From an uncultured Myxococcales bacterium (lineage in GTDB: Bacteria > Myxococcota_A > UBA9042): a stretch of DNA of 64,000 nt. Positions within the stretch are counted from its first letter, which is position 1, and every line of letters begins with the position of its first letter. Both the position numbers and the translations under genes were made by a program. The stretch covers positions 11,871 to 75,870 of the forward strand of contig CAISBR010000131.1 in the NCBI GenBank assembly GCA_903883645.1. Reading direction: 5' to 3'. Positions 4,575-14,590 of this stretch are shown here, one piece after another. Below the pieces are notes generated by a model, which searched no databases, was not told the origin of the DNA, and saw nothing but the letters and a program-made list of their open reading frames with translations.

Positions 4575-4880
4575 CTACTTACCGCCGAGGTCCTTGAACT
4601 TCTTCAGACCATCGGGCGTCAGGTCGAACTTCGGCGCCATGTTGGCGTGGCAGGCCTTGCACGCCAGGGCTGGGTCCTTGGCCTTGGCCTCGCTGACCCA
4701 CGCCTTCCAAGCCTTCTTGGCCTCTTCCTGGCCGCCCTTCTTGCAGGCCTCTTCTGTCATCTTGGTCTCGAACTTGGTGCGGTTGCACGGAGCCGGAGCC
4801 GCCGGAGCATCGGCCATGGCCATGCCCGCGCCAAGAACAACCAGACCGAGCGCCAGGATCATCGAAAACTTCTTCATCAC
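4575..4880 (-). CDS. Small secreted monoheme c-type cytochrome
   Basis: Signal peptide MMKKFSMILALGLVVLGAGMAMA, single CxxCH (ACKACH), strong RBS GGAGGAGG. Same strand and immediately downstream of the sigma-54 regulator. Confidence 0.6.
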   Translation of the reverse strand: MMKKFSMILALGLVVLGAGMAMADAPAAPAPCNRTKFETKMTEEACKKGGQEEAKKAWKAWVSEAKAKDPALACKACHANMAPKFDLTPDGLKKFKDLGGK

Positions 4881-5067: not shown

Positions 5068-6471
5068 CTAACCGGCTTTGGCGGGCGCTGGTCCATCGGC
5101 GTCGGGCGCAAGACCCAGGGCCGCCAGCTTCTCGTACAAGGTGCTGCGATGCAGGCCCGCCAGCTCGGCGGCGCGTTGCACGCTGTGACCCGACCGCACC
5201 AAAAGCCGAGTAAAATAATCTACTTCGAATGCGCGGCGCGCGTCCTTGAAGTGGTCGATGTCGGCTGCGTGCGAGCTACTGGTTTGACCCTCGCGGGGCG
5301 CCACTAGCTCCGTTGGCAGACAATCAACCGTAATTTCAGAACCATCACAGATGAGCGCCGCCCGCTCGAGCACATGCTCTAGTTCCCGAACGTTTCCGGG
5401 CCACGGATATTCAATCATCGCGCGCAACACGGCCGGCACCACGGTGTGTTGGGGCCGGTGGTCGCGTGCCGCAATCTTCTGCAAGAAGTGGTCCACTAGG
5501 CGGCCGATGTCCTCGGCGCGCTTGCGCAGGGGCGGCAGCTCGATACGCACGGTATTGATACGATAATACAGGTCTTGGCGAAACTGACCGCGCTCGGCCA
5601 GCTGCTCGATGGCCCGGTTTGAGGCGCACAGCATCCGCACGTTGGTGTGCTCGAGCCGCCTGCTACCAACTCGATAATACTCGCCATTTTGCAGAACGCG
5701 CAGGAGCTTGGGCTGCAGCGCCAGGCTCATGTCGCCAATCTCGTCGAGGAAAAGGGTGCCGCCATCGGCCTCGGCAAAAAAGCCTTCGCGCGACTGATTG
5801 GCGCCCGAAAACGCGCCCTTTTCGTGGCCAAATAGCTCACTTTCAAGCAGGTGTTCGGGGATCGCGCTGCAGTTCAGCGACACGAACGGCCCCTTGTTGC
5901 GCAGGCTCAACTTGTGGATATGCTGGGCAAACACGTCTTTTCCGGTGCCGCTTTCACCCAGGATCAGCACGGGCAGGTCCGAGGGCGCCGCCCGCGCGGC
6001 TAGCTGCAAGGCCGCCTGCATCGTTGGGGCACTTCCAATAATTCCATGACTTTCAGTTTGGCGCGAGACCACGGAGCGCAGTCGGGTGTTTTCGCGCACC
6101 AACTGCCGGTGGGTGATCGCGCGCTCGACCACAATCTCGAGCTCGCTCGGATCAAAGGGCTTGCGCAAGTAGTCGAACGCGCCGCGCTTCATCGCCTCGA
6201 CAGCGGTCTCGACCGTGCCAAACGCGGTGATCACGACTACCGGCAGATCGGGATCGAGCTTGTGGAAGCGCTCTAAGCCCTGCAGCCCGTCGATTCCGGG
6301 CATGCGCAGGTCGGTCACCGCGACGTCCGCACCATCGGTCTGAAGAAATTCCTCGGCTTCGGCCACACCCGTGGCCGTGGCCAGCCGATAGCGCCGCGCA
6401 TCCATACTGCGGGTGAACAGCTCGCGCGCGGCGGGCTGATCGTCGATGAACAGGACGGTCGGTCGATTCAC
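5068..6471 (-). CDS. Sigma-54-dependent response regulator (NtrC family: receiver + AAA+ sigma-54 activator + HTH)
   Basis: Receiver (LFIDDQ...DLRMPGIDG), Walker A GESGTGKD, GAFSGA/ESELFGHEKGAFSGA sigma-54 interaction motif, C-terminal HTH. Overlaps the kinase gene by 4 bp. Confidence 0.9.
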   Translation of the reverse strand: MNRPTVLFIDDQPAARELFTRSMDARRYRLATATGVAEAEEFLQTDGADVAVTDLRMPGIDGLQGLERFHKLDPDLPVVVITAFGTVETAVEAMKRGAFDYLRKPFDPSELEIVVERAITHRQLVRENTRLRSVVSRQTESHGIIGSAPTMQAALQLAARAAPSDLPVLILGESGTGKDVFAQHIHKLSLRNKGPFVSLNCSAIPEHLLESELFGHEKGAFSGANQSREGFFAEADGGTLFLDEIGDMSLALQPKLLRVLQNGEYYRVGSRRLEHTNVRMLCASNRAIEQLAERGQFRQDLYYRINTVRIELPPLRKRAEDIGRLVDHFLQKIAARDHRPQHTVVPAVLRAMIEYPWPGNVRELEHVLERAALICDGSEITVDCLPTELVAPREGQTSSSHAADIDHFKDARRAFEVDYFTRLLVRSGHSVQRAAELAGLHRSTLYEKLAALGLAPDADGPAPAKAG

Positions 6472-8450
6472 GGCGCCTCCTGTTTCGGCCCGTCGAGCGG
6501 CAGGTCGATGGTAAAGGTGGTGCCCACGCCGAGCTGCGACTCAACACTCAGCTGTCCGCCATGTAAAGCAATGATTTGATGGGCAATTGATAGGCCAAGG
6601 CCCGTACCTTTGCCTTCCTTTGTCGAAAAGAACGGGTCGAAGATGCGGTCGAGATTCTCGCGCGGAATGCCGCAGCCGTTGTCGGCGATGACGACGCGGG
6701 CGCGCTGGTTGGCGTCGCGATGGGCGCTGACCCGCAGTGTCGGGTGGGGCACGCCGTCGAGCGCGTCGAGAGCATTGAGCAGTAAATTGACCAGAACCTG
6801 CACCAACTGCCGGCCATCACAGCGAATCGCGCCCAGATCGGCCTGGATATTCTCGTCGAGCTGCACTGTAGACGACCGCAGCCGATATCCACACATGCCC
6901 AGCGCCTCTTGCAGTAGGTCCGCCAGCGATTCGTCGCCAAAGCGGTTGTGCCCCGGCCGTGCAAACTGCAAGAAACGGTCCAAGATCTGAACACCTCGCT
7001 GATTTTCGCTGCGAATGGCGGCAATGTCGGGCGTGCGGTCGTCGTCGGCGGGCGTGGCGCGGGCCAGCAGCCCGGCAAAGCCTTGGATCGCGTGCATCAC
7101 GTTGCCGAGCTCGTGGGCCAGGCCCGCCGCAATCGTTCCGAGCGAAACCAAGCGGTCGTGGCGGCGCAAACGCTCTTCCAGCATGCGGTCGGCCGTCACA
7201 TCCGTCACGATGAGCACCGCGCCCAATGAACGGTTGCCCTGGCCGAGCAGCGGGTAGGCGTGGATGGCGAGCTGCCGCTGGGTAGGGCCACTGGCCTGTT
7301 CGCCGTCGCCGGTCGATGGATCATACATCCTTGAAATTTCGAACTTTCTCCCCTTGCGTGTATGGATTACCTCTTCGACCGTACGCCACAGCGGCTCGCC
7401 CTCGGGCACGATCTGTGCCAAGTGCATGCCGGGCTCGGGCTTCGACAGCCCCGCTAGCTGGCGACTCGCAGACTGGTTGACCTGTACGACCTCGCCGGCC
7501 AAATCACATGTTAACACGCCCTCTTCCATCGCACGGAACACCGACTCAAGGTAACGCGCCGTCTCGCGCAGCTCGGCCGTCACATCGTCGACGCGCTGGC
7601 GCAGGCGCGCACTCTGCAGCTGCAGCTTGTCGAGCAGGTCGGCGTTTGCCGCGCGCTGTTCTTTCAAAGCATCGACCAACTGCCCAAATCGATACTGCAA
7701 TTGACCGATCTCGTCGCGTGAAGTGGGGGCGATGGCGACTTGATCGAATTTGCCCTCGGCCACGGCTTCGGCCGCCTTGCCCAACTGTGCCAAAGGATTG
7801 GTAATTCTTCGCACATATACCGAGGCCAGGGCCGAGCCCACTAGCATCCACAGCAGCGCCATCGCCAGGGCAACTGCAGTTAAATGAAAGCTTTTTTCGG
7901 CCAGCACCGTCGAGCGAAAAACCAGGTTGATGTTGCCTACGATCTCGCTACCGCGCGCAATCGGCGCCCCAACCTCGTACATCGCATCGTCGCCGACCAG
8001 CGCCGCCAGACCTGGACTGCGCCGTGGTGTCCGAAATGCACCAAATGGCTGCGTTATTTGCGGTTCACGCCCCGGGCGCTTGCGCGACGCCAGCACCTTG
8101 CCGGCGCGGTCGCTCACCACTACCTCGACCACATCGACGGTCTTGTCGAGCCGGTCAAAGAGCAGACCAAAGGCCCTTTCGGTCGGATTCTCGAGCAGCG
8201 CCACCGCACTCGTGGCCACGCTCTGGGCAACGATGGTGCCGTCGCTCAGCACATGCTGGTCCATATCCGTGATTTCGCTCGATAACCACACCAAGGTCTG
8301 GCCGAGCAGCACCAGGCAAATCACGCCCGACATCAGCACGACCAGCTTGGTGCCGAGACTTATCGGTGCGCCACGGAGCCACGCCATCGCTGTTAACCAC
8401 GGCCGCAGACTCAGCTTCATGACTGGCCTCGCATGGGCAAGCTGTGGCAT
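6468..8450 (-). CDS. Transmembrane sensor histidine kinase (TM, HAMP, PAS, HisKA, HATPase_c)
   Basis: H-box [15 protein letters not shown]; N/G boxes [22 protein letters not shown]...GTGLGLSIA. Alternative start ATG at 8420 forms an ATGA overlap with the stop of the upstream cytochrome gene. Confidence 0.85.
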
Positions 8451-9439
8451 TTTTCGCAGGGCAAGGTATTCATGCCCGCGGGGGCGGTGCGCGGTCTGCG
8501 TCGTTCAGGGCGACCGCCCTCGGCGCTGCTGGGCGAGACATCGGGCGGCAAGCGGATGCCGGGTGGCAAGGTCTTGAAATCGCTGTTGTCGTGGCACTCG
8601 CGGCAGGCGCTTAAGCTCACGCGCCACAGGTGTGGTTTGTGGCAGTCGCCGCAGTTGCTGTGGTCGGCGATGTCGTGGATGGCCGACGGCAGCTTGCGCT
8701 TGTGGCAGCTGGTGCAGGCGACGATGCGGTCTTGGCCCTTGCCGTGTGGGCGGTGGCAGGTGCCGCAGCCCAGGTTAGCCATGTGGTGATCCTTAGAGTA
8801 ATCGGGCACATAAATGCCCCTCGCGCTGTGGCAATCGATGCACTGCGCCTGCGACGGCAACAGATCATCGCGCTTGGTACGAAAATCGTGGCACGCGTTG
8901 CAGTGCAGCTTCGACATGCCGGCGATGCGCACCTGCTCTTCGTGGCACTTGCCGCACGCATCGAGCGGGTCTACGTTCTTGTGCATCGACGCGCCGTGGC
9001 ACGAGTCGCAGCGCACATTGGGCTGGCGCAGGTGCAGGGCATGGCCGGCCGACACGTGGATCGGCGCATGGCCCGGCATCGGCTTGCCATGGCACGCGGT
9101 GCACGCACTCATCGGCACTTTGGGCGAATGTACGGCGGCCACAGAGCCCGGCTTGGTCGGATCGCGGCCACTCGCATAGGCCCTCAGCATCTCGGCGGCC
9201 TGTTCCAAGGTCTGGTGGTGGCAGTCTTGGCAGGCCACATCGTGGTGCGCGCTTTTTTGCCAAAGCTGGTACTGCTCTTGCGGCTCGTGGCAGTTGGCGC
9301 AAAATTGCGAGTCGTGTTCAACACTATGCACCACCTGCCGCCAGCTTGCGTAGGCAGCCACCACGAACACGATCCCGGCCGCTAGCCACCACCGCATACG
9401 CGGCGACAGTGCGGGTTGGCTTGGCTCCTCTCTGTCCAT
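8417..9439 (-). CDS. Membrane-anchored dodecaheme c-type cytochrome
   Basis: N-terminal TM helix (WWLAAGIVFVVAAYASW) and 12 CxxCH motifs in ~300 aa (CANCH, CQDCH, CTACH, CDSCH, CGKCH, CNACH, CIDCH, CGTCH, CTSCH, CGDCH, CRECH, CEKCH). The heme density resembles c7-type polymer cytochromes. Confidence 0.85.
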   Translation of the reverse strand: MDREEPSQPALSPRMRWWLAAGIVFVVAAYASWRQVVHSVEHDSQFCANCHEPQEQYQLWQKSAHHDVACQDCHHQTLEQAAEMLRAYASGRDPTKPGSVAAVHSPKVPMSACTACHGKPMPGHAPIHVSAGHALHLRQPNVRCDSCHGASMHKNVDPLDACGKCHEEQVRIAGMSKLHCNACHDFRTKRDDLLPSQAQCIDCHSARGIYVPDYSKDHHMANLGCGTCHRPHGKGQDRIVACTSCHKRKLPSAIHDIADHSNCGDCHKPHLWRVSLSACRECHDNSDFKTLPPGIRLPPDVSPSSAEGGRPERRRPRTAPAGMNTLPCEKCHSLPMRGQS

Positions 9440-9520
9440 GCCGTCCCCCGTCTCCTCGGTCCGCTGCGCTCATCGGCACAACCGGGCCGCAAGCACTAGG
9501 TCTCTAACCCGCCTCAGCAC

Positions 9521-10105
9521 CTAATGGCAACCTCCGCAGGTCTGTGTGCGGATCGTGACCTGAAAGTGCCCTTCAAAGGCGTGGCAGCTGTGGCAGTGTC
9601 CCACACCCTGCTCGTCGTGATCAAAGTGCGAGAACGTACCCGTAGGCAACTCAACTTTGGCTGGCTTCTCCGCTGCGTCGTCGTCGTCGCCCGTCGCCGT
9701 TGTCGCCGCAGGGGCCCCCGCTCCCGTCCCGCCGTCGTCCGCTGCTGTGGGTGAGGCTTCCCCAGCGGTGGCGGCAGGATTGGGAGCGGCAGGCTCCGCG
9801 GGACCGCCGGCATCACTGTCGACGGTCGCAGCTTCCGCAGGCGTTGCCGCCGCAGGTGGTTCGGCAGGAGGTGGGCCGAACGGGGTCCCCTTGCGGAAAG
9901 CTTCGAAATTGTGGCACCCAAAGCATGGTAACTTAGCAATTTTAGCAGCTCTACGGGCCTTTTCGGCCTCAGCAGCCTTGGCTGGGTCCTCGGCGGCGGC
10001 TGCGACATGGCTGGGGTCTTGCGCGGCGGCGCGTTGCCCTCCCACGACCCATGCGACCGCCGCTAGCATGGCCACCATGGCGCCTACTGCAGCGATGCGC
10101 TTCAT
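9521..10105 (-). CDS. Secreted triheme c-type cytochrome with a Pro/Ala-rich linker
   Basis: Re-called start: ATG at 10105 (GGGAGG RBS; ATGA overlap with the stop of the upstream gene). Signal peptide MKRIAAVGAMVAMLAAVAWV. CFGCH, CHSCH, CGGCH. The long N-terminal extension in the ORF track (9521..10708) lies in the same frame as the upstream gene's C-terminus and is rejected. Confidence 0.65.
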   Translation of the reverse strand: MKRIAAVGAMVAMLAAVAWVVGGQRAAAQDPSHVAAAAEDPAKAAEAEKARRAAKIAKLPCFGCHNFEAFRKGTPFGPPPAEPPAAATPAEAATVDSDAGGPAEPAAPNPAATAGEASPTAADDGGTGAGAPAATTATGDDDDAAEKPAKVELPTGTFSHFDHDEQGVGHCHSCHAFEGHFQVTIRTQTCGGCH

Positions 10106-11841
10106 TTTTCGCCTCCCTCTGGCGCAGTCGGCTTGGCCGCACTTGGCTCGGGCGCGGCCGCTTGCTCCGCAATGGGGGGCTGCGGGGCCTCGTCGGCCTT
10201 TTGCGCCTCTTTGACCCACTTGTCGTGCTCGTCTGCGTGCTCTTCGGCATAGTCGTGCAGGCTCATGCGCCCCGTCAAGAACACCCACGACATCGGGAAG
10301 ATAGATGGCCTCAGGTGCACGTTGTAGAAGTGCCAGACAAAGATCGCCAGGGCGGCCAGCAGGGCCTCGTCGGTATGGGCAAACCAGGCGATCTCGTAGA
10401 CCCAGGTGGGTGCGTACTTCATGATCGTGCTGGGGAACCAGCGTACCGCGCCCGACCCGACCATGATGACGCAGCCCCAGAACACTGCCCAGTAGTCGAA
10501 CTTCTCGAAGTAGGTGTAGCGACCATAGCGCGGACGCTCTTTGGCAAAGCCCAAGAACCAGGCGAGGTTTTGCGCCAAGTGCATCACATCGCGCGGCGCG
10601 GGCAACATGGTCGGCTGCAGCTTCTTTTGCAGCAACTTCTGCACCAGGTACGTCACGTGCAGCAGGGCCGCCACGATAAGACCGATCGCCGCGGCGCGGT
10701 GCAGCCAACCCAGCTGCTGCAAGCCACCGAACAGCGCGACCAAGCTATGCGAAGCGCCGATACCTCGCGTACTTAGCGGCCAACCCGTCAGCACCAGCGT
10801 CGAGAACGACAGCGCCATCAGGCCGTGGGCCGCGCGCTGCTGGCCGTCAAAGCGCAGCACCGTGCCGTCTTTGCCCACCCGTCCGCCACTGGCTTTGTGC
10901 AGCTTGTCGGTGTCAACCTTGTTGTTTTGGTGGGGCTTGCCCTCGGTAGCCTCGCGGCGCGCGCGGCGGATGACGTTGACCAGATCGAGCAGCACGTGCA
11001 GCGACAGGCCTAGGATCGTCAAGAAGGTGAGCCAGCCAAAGAAGCGGATGGTCCAGAACGACACCGGGCGATCCTCGGCGGTAATACCCTTGTGCCCGGC
11101 CAGTTTTTGGAAGTCTTTATCGGCACCTTGGTGGCACTTGGCGCACGGACCGGCGGCGCGGGCCTCGGTCTCGGTCACACTCTGCGGCGGATGCACCGGG
11201 TGGCAGTCGGCGCAACCGGGCGCATCGGGCGAGCCCAAGCTCAGCTTGGTAAAGTGCATCGTGTGCTCATACCCCTCGACCACATCGGCGCGCTGCTTAA
11301 CCGGCGCCATCTTCTTTTCGTCGCCATGGCACTTGATGCAGTGCTCGTTCATGTGCTTGCGCCAATCGTTCTTGGGCACATCGGCGCGCTTTTGGATGGT
11401 GTGGGGGTCGCCGTGGCAGTCGATGCAGTAGGGCAGGCCCGCCTTTAGACCGTCTTTCTGCTTGCCGTGCGGCATGGCGCCGGGCACTGCGCTCGGGCTG
11501 TCGTGGCAGTCGGTACACGCTGCCAGCGGCTCGGGGTGCTTGATGCCGCGCTTCTTAAGTGCATCGGCCGTCTCGCTTTTTACTTCTTCGACCGGCTCGT
11601 GCGGGTTGAACTGATAGCCCGTGTGACAGTCATTGCAGGCCTGCTCGCCGTGCGCCGAGGCCTTGTGGATCTTGGCCGAAAACTGCTCTTCTTGATGGCA
11701 GTTGCGGCACCACTTGGGGTCGTTGGCATCGGCCGGAGCCGCCAGAGCGGCCGCGGCAGTGCCGGTCACAAAGAGCAAGTTGGTCAGCGCCAGCCAGGCA
11801 GTGAGGCGAAGGGGCGGCAGACAGGCCAAGAAACGATGCAT
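10102..11841 (-). CDS. Fusion of a periplasmic heptaheme cytochrome c with an integral-membrane diheme cytochrome b (HydC/FdnI fold); CbcL-like quinol:cytochrome oxidoreductase
   Basis: Signal peptide, then 7 CxxCH (CRNCH, CNDCH, CTDCH, CIDCH, CIKCH, CADCH, CAKCH), then four or more TM helices carrying conserved His (HGLMAL, LHRAAAIG, LHVTYL, WFAHTDE, VWHFYNVHL) as in formate dehydrogenase gamma / hydrogenase b-type subunits. Confidence 0.75.
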   Translation of the reverse strand: MHRFLACLPPLRLTAWLALTNLLFVTGTAAAALAAPADANDPKWCRNCHQEEQFSAKIHKASAHGEQACNDCHTGYQFNPHEPVEEVKSETADALKKRGIKHPEPLAACTDCHDSPSAVPGAMPHGKQKDGLKAGLPYCIDCHGDPHTIQKRADVPKNDWRKHMNEHCIKCHGDEKKMAPVKQRADVVEGYEHTMHFTKLSLGSPDAPGCADCHPVHPPQSVTETEARAAGPCAKCHQGADKDFQKLAGHKGITAEDRPVSFWTIRFFGWLTFLTILGLSLHVLLDLVNVIRRARREATEGKPHQNNKVDTDKLHKASGGRVGKDGTVLRFDGQQRAAHGLMALSFSTLVLTGWPLSTRGIGASHSLVALFGGLQQLGWLHRAAAIGLIVAALLHVTYLVQKLLQKKLQPTMLPAPRDVMHLAQNLAWFLGFAKERPRYGRYTYFEKFDYWAVFWGCVIMVGSGAVRWFPSTIMKYAPTWVYEIAWFAHTDEALLAALAIFVWHFYNVHLRPSIFPMSWVFLTGRMSLHDYAEEHADEHDKWVKEAQKADEAPQPPIAEQAAAPEPSAAKPTAPEGGEK

Positions 11842-11900
11842 AGGGTCCTCCGAAGCGGTTGCGTCACTCTAACCAGGGCAGCCCAACCGCATTGACCCTT

Positions 11901-11917
11901 CGCACGATGCGTGCCAA
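11901..11917 (-). promoter_or_regulatory. Candidate sigma-54 (-24/-12) promoter for the cytochrome operon
   Basis: Minus strand reads TTGGCACGCATCGTGCG: TGGCAC-N5-GTGC versus the consensus TGGCAC-N5-TTGCA, with GG/GC spacing preserved. About 60 nt upstream of the ATG at 11841 and adjacent to the NtrC-type regulator. Confidence 0.45.
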
Positions 11918-11996
11918 GTTTTTTCGTCACTTGATCTGCGTCAAGTGTTAATAGTATCGCAATGTTGTGCGATGCAGGCTCGCGAGCCCAGGCCGA

Positions 11997-12135
11997 TGTC
12001 GGGTTTGCCGGACGGCTGTCGGCATGTCCCGACAAGTCCGCTGTCGGGTTTTCCAGACAAGCATACATGCGTACTATCGATGAGATATGTGGCATGTCTG
12101 GATTTCCAGACACCCTTTGTCGGGTTTTTTGGACA
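11997..12135. promoter_or_regulatory. Array of five TGTC-N10-GACA palindromes (putative enhancer/UAS sites)
   Basis: Copies at 11997-12013 (degenerate), 12017-12034, 12042-12059, 12095-12112 (perfect TGTCTGGA-tt-TCCAGACA) and 12118-12135; consensus TGTCGGGTTTTCCAGACA. They lie 80-230 bp upstream of the candidate sigma-54 promoter, in the divergent intergenic region. Confidence 0.5.
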
Positions 12136-12289
12136 AAAGCTGCCGAGAGCGCCGACACCGGCCTCGCTAGCGGTCTGGCACCGCGCCACCCGTCACAGCA
12201 ATGTCTGAAAATCCGACACGCCTTTCGGCCTTGCGCCGCTCGCCAACACGGCTCACCATCGCTGCGACACCCACTCGCCGGGCGTAGCG

Positions 12290-14590
12290 TTGCGCGCCCA
12301 TCCGGAGGTTCCGATGCCCGTGCTTGCCCATTTGGTTCAGCGGCGATGGCGCGCGCTGCCTGCGATTGCAGGCCTGCTTTTGCTGGCGACGCCCAGTTGC
12401 CGCCTCTTTGATCCACCGGCAATTGCGCAAAAAGCTATGGCCGACATGCCGATTAAGAAGGTGGTCCTGTACCAAAACGGCGTGGGCTACTTTGAGCGGC
12501 GCGGCAAGACGAATCTCGAAAGTGTGGAGCTGCGGGTGCGGCCCGACCAGGTCAACGATGTGCTGAAGTCGTTGGCTGTGCTGGACTTAGCGGGTGGTGC
12601 GGCCTCGTCGATCTCGCTGCCGGCTGAAAAGTCTGCCGACCGGCAAGAGGCCGAGATTCCGGCACAAGTCCGCAATGCTACGGGGCTTGTGGGCATGCTT
12701 GGGGTGCTGCGCGGCGCCGATGTGACGGTCGAGACCAACTCGGATAGCTGGACCGGCCGGGTGGTGGGCGTCGAAAATCCGCCGCAGGGCAAAGACGACA
12801 AGCCGCGGCCGGCGACGGTGACGCTGCTGGTGGGCGACGATCGCCTGGTGCCCGTGCACATCGACGCGATCAAGAGGGTGACGATCGGTGATCGGGCGCT
12901 GTCGGTGGGGCTAAAGCAGAGCCTGGATGTGAGCAAGCGCGAGGGCGCGTGGAAGCCGGTGTCGCTCGAGGTGCGGCTCGCGGGCGACAAGACGCACGAC
13001 TTGCTGATCAGCTACATCCACGAAGTGCCGGTGTGGCGGCCGGCCTATCGCGCGTGGGTCGAGACCGGAAAGGGTCTGCAATTGCAGGGTTGGGCGGTGG
13101 TCGACAACACCTCGGGCGAGGACTGGAACAAGGTCAATCTGAGCTTGGTGGTCGGCGCGCCGCTGTCGTTTCGCTACGATCTGCATACGGCGCACCATGT
13201 TACGCGGCCCGACCTGTCGGTGCGGTTGCCGCAAGAGGCCGCAGCGCCGCCGTCGCCCGACTCGGGCTTTGATGCTGCGCCCGCCGAAGTGCCTGCTGCC
13301 GAAGCGGCTGCCATGCCGCCCCCCGCGCCATCGGCGGCGCCTGCGGGCAATGCCATGGCCGACGAGTCGATGGAGGATGCCAAGAAGGCATCGTCTTCTT
13401 TTGGATTTGCTGGGGCAGGCCCCGGTGGTGGAGGCATGGGCGGTGGCATGGGTGGTGGCCGGTTTGCCAAAGAGCTGCCGCCGTCGAAGGTCGCGCGGCG
13501 CGCAATGCCGGCCGAGAAGTCGAAAGAGCAAGCGGACGACGCCGAGACCGAGCGGCAGCAGCGCGATGCGGCGATCAAGAACGTGCAAGCCCTTGTAACA
13601 GGTAAGGAAGTGGGCGCCTTGTATGCCTACGAGGCCACCTATCCGGTGACCGTGCCAGACCGGTCGTCGGCGCTGATCAATATCCTAAATCGCCACTTAG
13701 AGGGTCGCGATGTGTATCTTTTCCGCGAGCCGCAGAGCGGGCAGGCGCCGTATCGGGCGGTCATGCTGCGCAACGAAAGCACGGGGCCAGGTGCGGGGGC
13801 GCTCGAAGGTGGGCCGATAACACTCTATATCGACGGCACTTTTGCGGGCGAAGGCTTTGTTGGACGCATTGCGAAGGGCGAGGTGGCCTTTGTGCCGTAC
13901 GCCCGCGAGTCGGGCAGCACCGTGAGCCAGTCGAGTGACGACAAGACGGACGAGCTGCGGCTGGTTACGGTGGTCGATGGGCGCATCCGCATCGAGGGCA
14001 AGCAGCTGCATATCCGCACATTTACTGTTGAATCGAATACGGGCAAGCCCGCGCTGGCTTACGTTAAGACTAGCGCGACGGCGGGGATGACGCTGCGGGA
14101 CCCGCCGAAAGACTTCATCAAGGCTGGCAGCGACTGGTATGTGCCGGTGCTGATGCCCGCGAAGGGCAAAGGCGAGACCAAGCTTGTAGAAGAATCGCCG
14201 GTTTCATACGAAGAACTAGATGTAACAGATCGCGCTGCGGATGCGATGGCCTTGTATCTAAAGGGTGCCAAGGTTCAAGACGCGGTGAAAGGGCCAATTG
14301 AGCAGTTGTTGATGATTCGGGCGCAAATTGGCGATATTCAACGGGATACCAAGGGTCTCGACAGTCAACGCAGCGTGCTCGACGATGAGCAGCGGCGCAT
14401 TCAGGGCAACCTCGACGCGCTGCCGGCGGGTGCGGTGGCGGCGGACCTGCGGCGGCAGCTGCTGGGCCAGCTCGAGTCCGCATCGAAGAAGGCGGGCGAA
14501 GTGGCGAAAAAGCTGGTCGAAAACGAGGTCAAGATCGCCGCGTTGCGCGAGAAGATGGTGGTGCTGCTGCGGTCAATTGCACTCAAGTAG
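12290..14590 (+). CDS. Large secreted/membrane-associated protein; possible DUF4139/DUF4140-type protein common in myxobacteria
   Basis: Signal-like N-terminus, KVVLYQNGVGYFERRG segment, long Ala/Pro/Gly-rich low-complexity linker, C-terminal coiled coil. Domain naming is from memory only. Confidence 0.5.
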   Translation: MRAHPEVPMPVLAHLVQRRWRALPAIAGLLLLATPSCRLFDPPAIAQKAMADMPIKKVVLYQNGVGYFERRGKTNLESVELRVRPDQVNDVLKSLAVLDLAGGAASSISLPAEKSADRQEAEIPAQVRNATGLVGMLGVLRGADVTVETNSDSWTGRVVGVENPPQGKDDKPRPATVTLLVGDDRLVPVHIDAIKRVTIGDRALSVGLKQSLDVSKREGAWKPVSLEVRLAGDKTHDLLISYIHEVPVWRPAYRAWVETGKGLQLQGWAVVDNTSGEDWNKVNLSLVVGAPLSFRYDLHTAHHVTRPDLSVRLPQEAAAPPSPDSGFDAAPAEVPAAEAAAMPPPAPSAAPAGNAMADESMEDAKKASSSFGFAGAGPGGGGMGGGMGGGRFAKELPPSKVARRAMPAEKSKEQADDAETERQQRDAAIKNVQALVTGKEVGALYAYEATYPVTVPDRSSALINILNRHLEGRDVYLFREPQSGQAPYRAVMLRNESTGPGAGALEGGPITLYIDGTFAGEGFVGRIAKGEVAFVPYARESGSTVSQSSDDKTDELRLVTVVDGRIRIEGKQLHIRTFTVESNTGKPALAYVKTSATAGMTLRDPPKDFIKAGSDWYVPVLMPAKGKGETKLVEESPVSYEELDVTDRAADAMALYLKGAKVQDAVKGPIEQLLMIRAQIGDIQRDTKGLDSQRSVLDDEQRRIQGNLDALPAGAVAADLRRQLLGQLESASKKAGEVAKKLVENEVKIAALREKMVVLLRSIALK

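Follow-up and report, generated by a model that had tools for sequence, protein, structure and literature searches.

How the multihaem cytochrome genes of this uncultured Myxococcales bacterium are switched on is the question raised by the locus described here. The window (the whole stretch of DNA analysed, 64,000 nucleotides) contains an intergenic region of 472 bp between the ATG of a cytochrome gene on the minus strand and the ATG of a divergent gene on the plus strand. The original prediction placed in this region a sigma-54 promoter and, upstream of it, an array of palindromes. Judging from sequence and gene arrangement, the region very probably controls a minus-strand operon of six genes, which runs from 11841 down to ~4575. 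The genes concerned are as follows.

10102 to 11841, minus strand: gene 1, a 579-aa fusion of a 7-haem c-type cytochrome with a cytochrome b561 (HydC/FdnI-type) membrane domain (PF01292, 7 CXXCH motifs)
9521 to 10105, minus strand: gene 2, a 194-aa secreted trihaem protein (3 CXXCH motifs, Pro/Ala-rich linker; 78% identity to the gene at the same position in the related locus L085)
8417 to 9439, minus strand: gene 3, a 340-aa NapC/NirT-like multihaem cytochrome (12 CXXCH)
6468 to 8450, minus strand: gene 4, a 660-aa sensor histidine kinase (HAMP-PAS-HisKA-HATPase)
5068 to 6471, minus strand: gene 5, a 467-aa NtrC-family sigma-54 activator with a receiver, a Sigma54_activat (AAA+) domain and a Fis-type HTH
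4575 to 4877, minus strand: probable gene 6, a 100-aa secreted monohaem cytochrome c (CKACH), found by tblastn
12314 to 14590, plus strand: divergent gene, DUF4139/MuiA-like (weak match), outside the conserved module

Gene 1 has the SD sequence GGAGGA 5 nt before its ATG, and its haem ligands are invariant among homologues. It joins a HydC/FdnI b-type domain to a multihaem c domain, which is the CbcL-type design as far as architecture alone goes, and it is proposed to be a quinol-dehydrogenase-like b/c cytochrome fusion. For gene 2, a listed '164-aa ORF' (9514-10008) was discarded as a wrong-frame artefact with a junk translation, and the match in L085 favours the frame 9521-10105. The gene 4 kinase has two TM segments around a periplasmic region of ~130 aa, for which no Pfam match was found; among the models, the kinase is closest to AtoS. 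Probable gene 6 lies 190 bp downstream of the regulator gene and matches 102-aa ORFs located 3' of the regulator in L085 and in another related locus, L087. The divergent gene likely starts at ATG 12314, which has the SD sequence GGAGG, and not at TTG 12290.

The minus strand carries a sigma-54 type element 61 nt before the ATG at 11841, and the original estimate of about 60 nt was accurate.

11902 to 11916, minus strand: TGGCACGCATCGTGC, sigma-54 type -24/-12 element, read from 11916 to 11902, with GG at 11915-11914 and GC at 11903-11902

The element agrees with the sigma-54 consensus TGGCAC-N5-TTGCW at 10 of 12 positions, and the gap between GG and GC is exactly 10 nt; its -12 part reads GTGC, not TTGC. 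Transcription is predicted to start at ~11890, which would give a 5' UTR of ~49 nt. No sigma-70-like promoter was detected in a scan of 11700-12450, and an Rfam scan of 11000-13000 gave no sRNA or riboswitch between the promoter and the ATG. In the 64-kb window, the sigma-54 pattern has two matches vs 0.88 expected and is not above chance on its own; eight sigma-54 elements of equal score occur across the window. Therefore, the promoter call must rest on context and conservation. The other TGGCAC-N5-GTGC match, at 7406-7420, lies within the kinase coding sequence (HLAQIVP), where codon constraint explains it.

A frequency at chance level is also what would be seen if TGGCAC-N5-GTGC were a coincidental palindrome and the dyads upstream of it were non-functional repeats, arisen by chance or left behind by a repeat element. 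A terminator scan points the same way, as it flags 11902-11914 on the plus strand (a small hairpin, then a T-run); however, no plus-strand gene ends near this position. The dyads themselves are listed below with their centres counted from the predicted start at ~11890. The five 18-bp dyads of the original prediction are confirmed as four exact copies of TGTC-N10-GACA and one with a single mismatch, and a sixth, with N9 spacing, had not been listed there.

11997 to 12014, no strand assigned: dyad 1 (proximal), TGTCGGGTTTGCCGGACG, one core mismatch, centre ~-115.5, 12.7 bits (PWM from orthologues only)
12017 to 12034, no strand assigned: dyad 2, TGTCGGCATGTCCCGACA, centre ~-135.5, 22.7 bits, kept in L085
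12042 to 12059, no strand assigned: dyad 3, TGTCGGGTTTTCCAGACA, centre ~-160.5, 24.9 bits, 53 bp away from the distal pair and conserved as its 'third site'
12095 to 12112, no strand assigned: dyad 4, TGTCTGGATTTCCAGACA, a perfect 8+2+8 palindrome as originally described, centre ~-213.5, 26.9 bits, distal pair
12118 to 12135, no strand assigned: dyad 5, TGTCGGGTTTTTTGGACA, centre ~-236.5, 16.2 bits, distal pair, 23 bp from dyad 4
12202 to 12218, no strand assigned: sixth dyad, the 17-bp N9 variant TGTCTGAAAATCCGACA, ~-320 from the predicted operon start

All four exact copies of TGTC-N10-GACA in the 64 kb (starting at 12017, 12042, 12095, and 12118) fall inside 119 bp (12017-12135). The number expected per window is 0.59 from dinucleotide shuffles, and the chance of at least four dyads in one 119-bp span is ~4e-9 (Poisson, corrected for the whole window). 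Both this clustering and the lack of further copies in the window argue against non-functional repeats. With a PWM made from orthologous sites only, four of the window sites score 16-27 bits and the fifth 12.7, and the rest of the window reaches 14 bits at most. From proximal to distal, the start-to-start spacings are 20, 25, 53, and 23 bp. The distance from the -24 element upstream to the five 18-bp dyads is 81-219 bp; enhancers for NtrC-family activators are expected to have at least two dyad-symmetric sites at ~80-250 bp. Five sites had been considered a large number, but NtrC at glnAp2 also has five. Taken over the window and the orthologous loci, the extended consensus is TGTCkGGAwwTCCmGACA, i.e. 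two 8-bp half-sites around a 2-bp centre.

Gene 1 and the regulator have homologues in Myxococcota or 'Deltaproteobacteria' MAGs, where the two co-occur on contigs. Related Myxococcota MAGs keep the order of five genes (b/c fusion, trihaem protein, 12-haem cytochrome, HAMP-PAS kinase, and sigma-54 regulator), at the loci L081/L082, L083, L085, L086, L087, L001, L002, L011, and L023, and it is also found in Anaeromyxobacter-type loci, in which the kinases are more divergent. In L085 the regulator is 88% identical, and synteny is kept on both sides of the intergenic region. When the two intergenic regions are aligned, identity is concentrated in the six dyads, the -24/-12 element, a TTGA-N6-TCAAGTG block, a 5'-UTR block, and the RBS, and between these islands the sequence has diverged or been deleted. 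The L085 counterpart of TGGCACGCATCGTGC is TGGCACGTATCGTGCG; dyad 1 is kept at the matching position as CGTCGTGCAATCCCGACA, and dyad 4 is identical in sequence. The island nearest to the promoter on its upstream side is the following.

11928 to 11945, minus strand: CTTGACGCAGATCAAGTG, conserved block TTGA-N6-TCAA, identity island between the window and L085

This block is 12-30 bp upstream of the -24 element and is possibly a site for an architectural protein. The window and the upstream regions of five orthologous loci were scanned with the IHF consensus WATCAANNNNTTR (at most one mismatch), which was of the E. coli type. Nothing conserved was found, and the intergenic region itself has no match; therefore, an IHF site like that of glmY is not supported. 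The scanned region shows just an AT-rich spacer of 35 bp (43% GC) together with the TTGA-N6-TCAA block.

In L081, L083, L086, and L087, the regulators are 66-70% identical and the neighbouring gene differs. A pair of dyads 23-24 bp apart is kept in these four loci and in L085, as is a third dyad 53-64 bp from the pair. The -24/-12 element is found 59-107 nt before the ATG in L081, L083, L085, and L086 (e.g. TGGCACAGATGTTGCT, TGGTACGGAAATTGCT), and L023 has a consensus-like sigma-54 element at the equivalent position; in the L087 element, TC replaces GC at -12. Sites, spacing, and position are thus kept down to ~66% regulator identity while the flanks diverge. On these alignments the reading as non-functional repeats may be regarded as effectively refuted, and it retains practically no probability. 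The same four loci (L081, L083, L086, and L087) also carry an upstream gene for a ~116-aa membrane protein with its own near-consensus sigma-54 promoter, TTGGCACGGnnnTTGCT. Upstream of this gene, L083 and L086 have clear dyads and L081 has one exact copy. Since this gene has both features, dyad arrays and sigma-54 promoters pair at two places in the lineage.

It had also been suggested that some of the sites serve the divergent gene. Accordingly worded as an alternative, part of the array, at least the N9 site, would control the divergent gene instead of, or besides, the cytochrome operon. The N9 site is located 104 bp upstream of ATG 12314 and is conserved in L085 only, as TGTCGGAATTTCCGACA. 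Among the relatives compared, L085 is the only one in which the divergent gene adjoins the operon, the others having a same-strand ORF of ~116 aa in its place, and a further block between the N9 site and the divergent gene (12243-12265) is conserved between the window and L085. However, a link that leans on a single shared relative is weak evidence. Moreover, no plus-strand sigma-54-like element was found in 11991-12300, nor a sigma-70-like match, and the 18-bp dyads persist in relatives that lack the divergent gene. Control of the divergent gene is therefore considered unlikely; the suggestion is not supported for the main array and survives as a possibility for the N9 site.

Whether the sites belong to the linked regulator was examined through their distribution. 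In a search of 86 loci with a PWM from the window's five sites only, sites scoring 14 bits or more were counted as strong. Where the regulator is at least 58% identical (n = 10 loci, 152 kb), 28 strong sites occur, of which 23 lie no more than 500 bp upstream of the cytochrome gene; the loci with a homologous cytochrome and no orthologous regulator (n = 63, 1.05 Mb) contain nine, none of them (0/9) within that distance. The sigma-54 element behaves similarly: of eight non-redundant loci that have the regulator, six carry one upstream, compared with 4 of the 63 loci that lack it. Together with footprinting across relatives and the second pairing of dyads with a sigma-54 promoter, this co-occurrence supports the original view of a sigma-54 promoter fed by enhancer sites for the linked regulator.

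The regulator, gene 5, is the sole sigma-54 activator encoded in the 64-kb window. As had been noted from the first, an activator of the NtrC type is encoded in the same block as the promoter (5068-6471), and its domains are a receiver, Sigma54_activat (230 bits), and HTH_8. Its sigma-54 contact loop reads GAFSGA and not the canonical GAFTGA. The same loop is present in the closest 66 homologues, and since it is conserved in the clade, it is probably functional. The recognition helix of gene 5, HRSTLYEKL, is common to more than 100 homologues, including Anaeromyxobacter-type regulators, whose loci are mostly without strong dyads. Because the helix does not tell loci that have dyads from those that lack them, its comparison neither confirms nor refutes the assignment of the sites. 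From the linkage and distribution described above, gene 5 is proposed as the binder of the 18-bp dyads.

A different protein, encoded elsewhere, may be considered in its place: a paralogous EBP with the same helix, or a repressor of the PpsR/CrtJ type or the XRE type. As Anaeromyxobacter-type regulators share the helix at loci mostly devoid of strong dyads, a paralogue with the same specificity is conceivable. When metagenomes were scanned for the perfect extended palindrome, 120 loci were obtained, none with the regulator or the cytochrome; 99 of them were isolated sites, and at a few loci, on unrelated contigs, near-identical palindromes formed arrays with a period of 38-40 bp directly upstream of XRE/HipB-like genes. 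Therefore, the extended palindrome alone is not diagnostic. TGTc-N10-gACA is, in addition, the operator of PpsR, a protein with a C-terminal HTH, so that the core letters and the spacing (TGT-N12-ACA) are the same (PMC3949515). Whereas PpsR of purple bacteria represses photosynthesis-gene promoters, the sites here co-occur with an EBP and are a long way upstream of the nearest sigma-54 element. PpsR-controlled photosynthesis-gene promoters are of the sigma-70 type. A PpsR/CrtJ operator was rejected for the window, as the pattern fits but the sites are 80-220 bp upstream of the sigma-54 element, lie by cytochrome genes, and track the EBP; the annotated genes between 3551 and 15977 offer no photosynthesis context. 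Against any different binder, the sites follow the presence of the gene 5 regulator and not that of the cytochrome gene, they always precede a sigma-54 element by 100-300 bp rather than overlying a sigma-70 promoter, and the window has no second EBP. Overall, the co-occurrence data favour the linked regulator, and a different binder appears improbable.

The proposed binding of the dyads by gene 5 invites comparison with known systems, of which the closest in its sites is GlrR of Enterobacteriaceae. TGTC-N10-GACA is the consensus of E. coli GlrR/QseF, an experimentally characterised activator that binds three such sites ahead of the sigma-54 promoters driving glmY and glmZ (PMC3045617). The E. 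coli glmY sites were read as TGTCTGTAAATCACGACA, TGTCGCTTTCTGGCGACA, and TGTCTCTTTTTAGCGACA, with spacings of 33 and 63 bp, and TTGGCACAGTTACTGCA comes after them. The two systems share the core, sites located ~100-230 bp upstream of a TGGCAC-type -24/-12 promoter, and an arrangement of a close pair plus a third site ~60 bp on (33/63 bp in E. coli, 23/53 bp here); in both, an NtrC-family response regulator has its cognate kinase gene nearby. The differences are considerable. The recognition helix is HRSTLYEKL here vs NRTEFYKLL in GlrR, the target is a cytochrome operon and not an sRNA (no Rfam match in 11000-13000), neither QseG nor an IHF consensus is present, the kinase is of the HAMP-PAS type, and there are five to six sites instead of three. 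The inner positions kGGA..TCCm are missing from the three E. coli glmY sites. Gene 5 is 39% identical to GlrR and scores 348.7 bits with NCBIfam NF011695, for which the cutoff is 763, whereas the NtrC and AtoC models score higher. That gene 5 is a GlrR orthologue is ruled out by this identity and sub-cutoff score, together with the different recognition helix, the kinase type, and the lack of an sRNA target.

NtrC-family enhancers such as those of NtrC at glnAp2 and of NmpR likewise consist of multiple dyads upstream of a sigma-54 promoter, with cooperative oligomerisation, but the sequence and spacing of their half-sites are unlike those of the dyads here. The Myxococcus NmpR motif is GCGCA-N5-TGCGC, and the regulator's own operon is frequently autoregulated in such systems (PMC11841059). 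NmpR was the sole characterised myxobacterial EBP motif found in a literature search, and it is unrelated to TGTC-N10-GACA. The same kind of search for the extended half-sites returned primers and unrelated sequences only, and no TGTC/GACA motif is listed in the text of the Desulfovibrio sigma-54 regulome paper. The idea that the dyads define the motif of an uncharacterised regulator is thus to be divided: the core has been published, both for GlrR/QseF and for PpsR, while the inner positions and the regulator clade have not been described.

With respect to the genes controlled, a parallel is found in Geobacter sulfurreducens. There, cbcBA is a bc-cytochrome operon under BccR, a sigma-54-dependent activator of the response-regulator type, and a module of this type is thought to pass quinol-pool electrons on to the periplasm (bioRxiv 10.1101/2021.04.15.440034). 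Here too, an inner-membrane b-type plus multihaem c-type module is probably under sigma-54 control; bccR, however, is divergently transcribed, whereas the regulator and kinase genes here are inside the target operon. No binding motif for BccR was found in the passages searched. In function, BccR-cbcBA is the nearest precedent for a b/c cytochrome module under sigma-54 control. Geobacter CbcL (GSU0274) is a b/c fusion like gene 1 by architecture only, with nine c-haems vs seven here, and is reported there to be constitutive (bioRxiv 10.1101/2021.04.15.440034).

Taken together, there is good reason to regard the intergenic region as a sigma-54 promoter with upstream sites for the two-component activator of its own operon; we infer binding, start site, and sigma-54 dependence alike from the DNA sequence. 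The best-supported course of activation would be as follows. Sigma-54 RNA polymerase would bind at 11916-11902 and form a closed complex, and regulator dimers would occupy the 18-bp dyads, centred ~115-237 bp upstream of the start. Phosphorylation of the regulator by the HAMP-PAS kinase would lead to an AAA+ ring on the array, which would reach sigma-54 by DNA looping and open the promoter with ATP. The promoter is probably autoregulated. Because the kinase and regulator genes are within the same operon, activation would close a positive feedback loop. The signal is probably related to redox state or to an electron acceptor, since the cargo of the operon is cytochromes.

The design of the promoter is canonical, and the regulator clade of uncultured Myxococcota is unstudied. 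Beyond the published core, what is new here lies in the regulator clade and in kGGAwwTCCm, the inner part of the extended motif. A wider proposal can be offered only tentatively, and it has somewhat less than an even chance of being correct: a Myxococcota-specific clade of GAFSGA EBPs, reading TGTCkGGAwwTCCmGACA, would form with its HAMP-PAS kinase a self-amplifying redox or acceptor switch for a 23-haem conduit from quinol to the periplasm, made up of a CbcL-like fusion and three c-type cytochromes, and in relatives also for the small membrane protein behind the second promoter. If so, the operon would be a regulated counterpart of the constitutive CbcL of Geobacter, and the TGTC/GACA core held in common with GlrR would represent an old DNA-reading mode of Fis-type HTH domains.

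No new regulatory principle emerges from this locus, and its interest is modest, mainly for those who work on extracellular electron transfer and on the sigma-54 regulon of Myxococcota. It links probable sigma-54 control to a CbcL-like multihaem respiratory module, and in Geobacter such modules set which extracellular electron acceptors the cell can use. It also supplies a testable motif and promoter architecture for a two-component system of uncultured Myxococcota that is so far uncharacterised, and with the motif model the regulon could be mapped across the many MAGs in which the operon occurs.

Two genes for secreted haem proteins on the minus strand emerged where mis-framed ORFs had been called:

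4575-4877, minus strand: monohaem cytochrome c gene (100 aa, secreted, CKACH)
9521-10105, minus strand: trihaem protein gene (194 aa, secreted, three CXXCH motifs, long Pro/Ala linker)

The first, concealed by a mis-framed 162-aa ORF, lies 190 bp 3' of the gene for the NtrC-family regulator, and the gap between them contains neither a dyad nor a sigma-54 element. Since its homologues also come after the regulator gene in two relatives' loci (L085, the closest, and L087), the monohaem cytochrome gene is probably the sixth gene of the operon, as judged from gene order. The trihaem protein is 78% identical to its L085 counterpart; the 164-aa ORF called mechanically at 9514-10008 was rejected as an Arg/Pro-rich junk translation in the wrong frame.

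At residue 219 of the regulator (gene 5068-6471), the sigma-54 contact loop reads GAFSGA, not GAFTGA. The 66 closest homologues among the best 120 matches all share this form, and homologues further off have GAFTGA or GSFTGA.

Two further blocks of the intergenic region are shared with L085:

12243-12265, minus-strand reading: GCAGCGATGGTGAGCCGTGTTGG, between the N9 dyad (a 17-bp variant) and the start of the divergent gene
11873-11888, minus strand: 5'-UTR block GGTTGGGCyGCCCTGG, directly downstream of the predicted start site

The former matches neither sigma-70 nor sigma-54 patterns and may be the promoter or 5' UTR of the divergent gene. The latter could form a small hairpin.

A second exact TGGCAC-N5-GTGC occurs at 7406-7420 (minus strand) within the kinase gene, where it codes for HLAQIVP. 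Its GG-N10-GC frame is kept in L085 because of codon constraint, and there are no dyads nearby; therefore, it is probably a chance match.

The metagenome scan for the perfect extended palindrome also found arrays in unrelated, high-GC contigs, directly 5' of XRE/HipB-like HTH genes:

L099, 1278-1370: palindrome array
L105, 722-815: palindrome array
L202, 1335-1470: palindrome array

In each, a near-perfect palindrome, TGTCGGGAwwTCCCGACA, occurs three or four times with a period of 38-40 bp, and the arrays are probably operators of another regulator family with an almost identical palindrome. At another locus (L102, 9406-9591), the same palindrome forms a 42-bp tandem array, CGTCGGGAGTTCCCGACA, of four or five copies. 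Identical copies are scattered 450-1000 bp apart at several positions in two low-GC contigs (L167 and L169), where they look like a repeat element.

Four relatives carry a conserved membrane-protein gene (113-118 aa) immediately 5' of the cytochrome operon:

L081, 7017-7349: membrane-protein gene
L083, 6971-7303: membrane-protein gene
L086, 6817-7149: membrane-protein gene
L087, 1725-2057: membrane-protein gene

The protein has the motif GAVPGxLYGGYMGL and no Pfam match, and no homologue of the gene is present in the 64-kb window. A separate near-consensus sigma-54 promoter, TTGGCACGGnnnTTGCT, is predicted for this gene, with the ATG 65-107 nt downstream, and upstream of it there are clear dyads in L083 and L086 and one exact dyad in L081.
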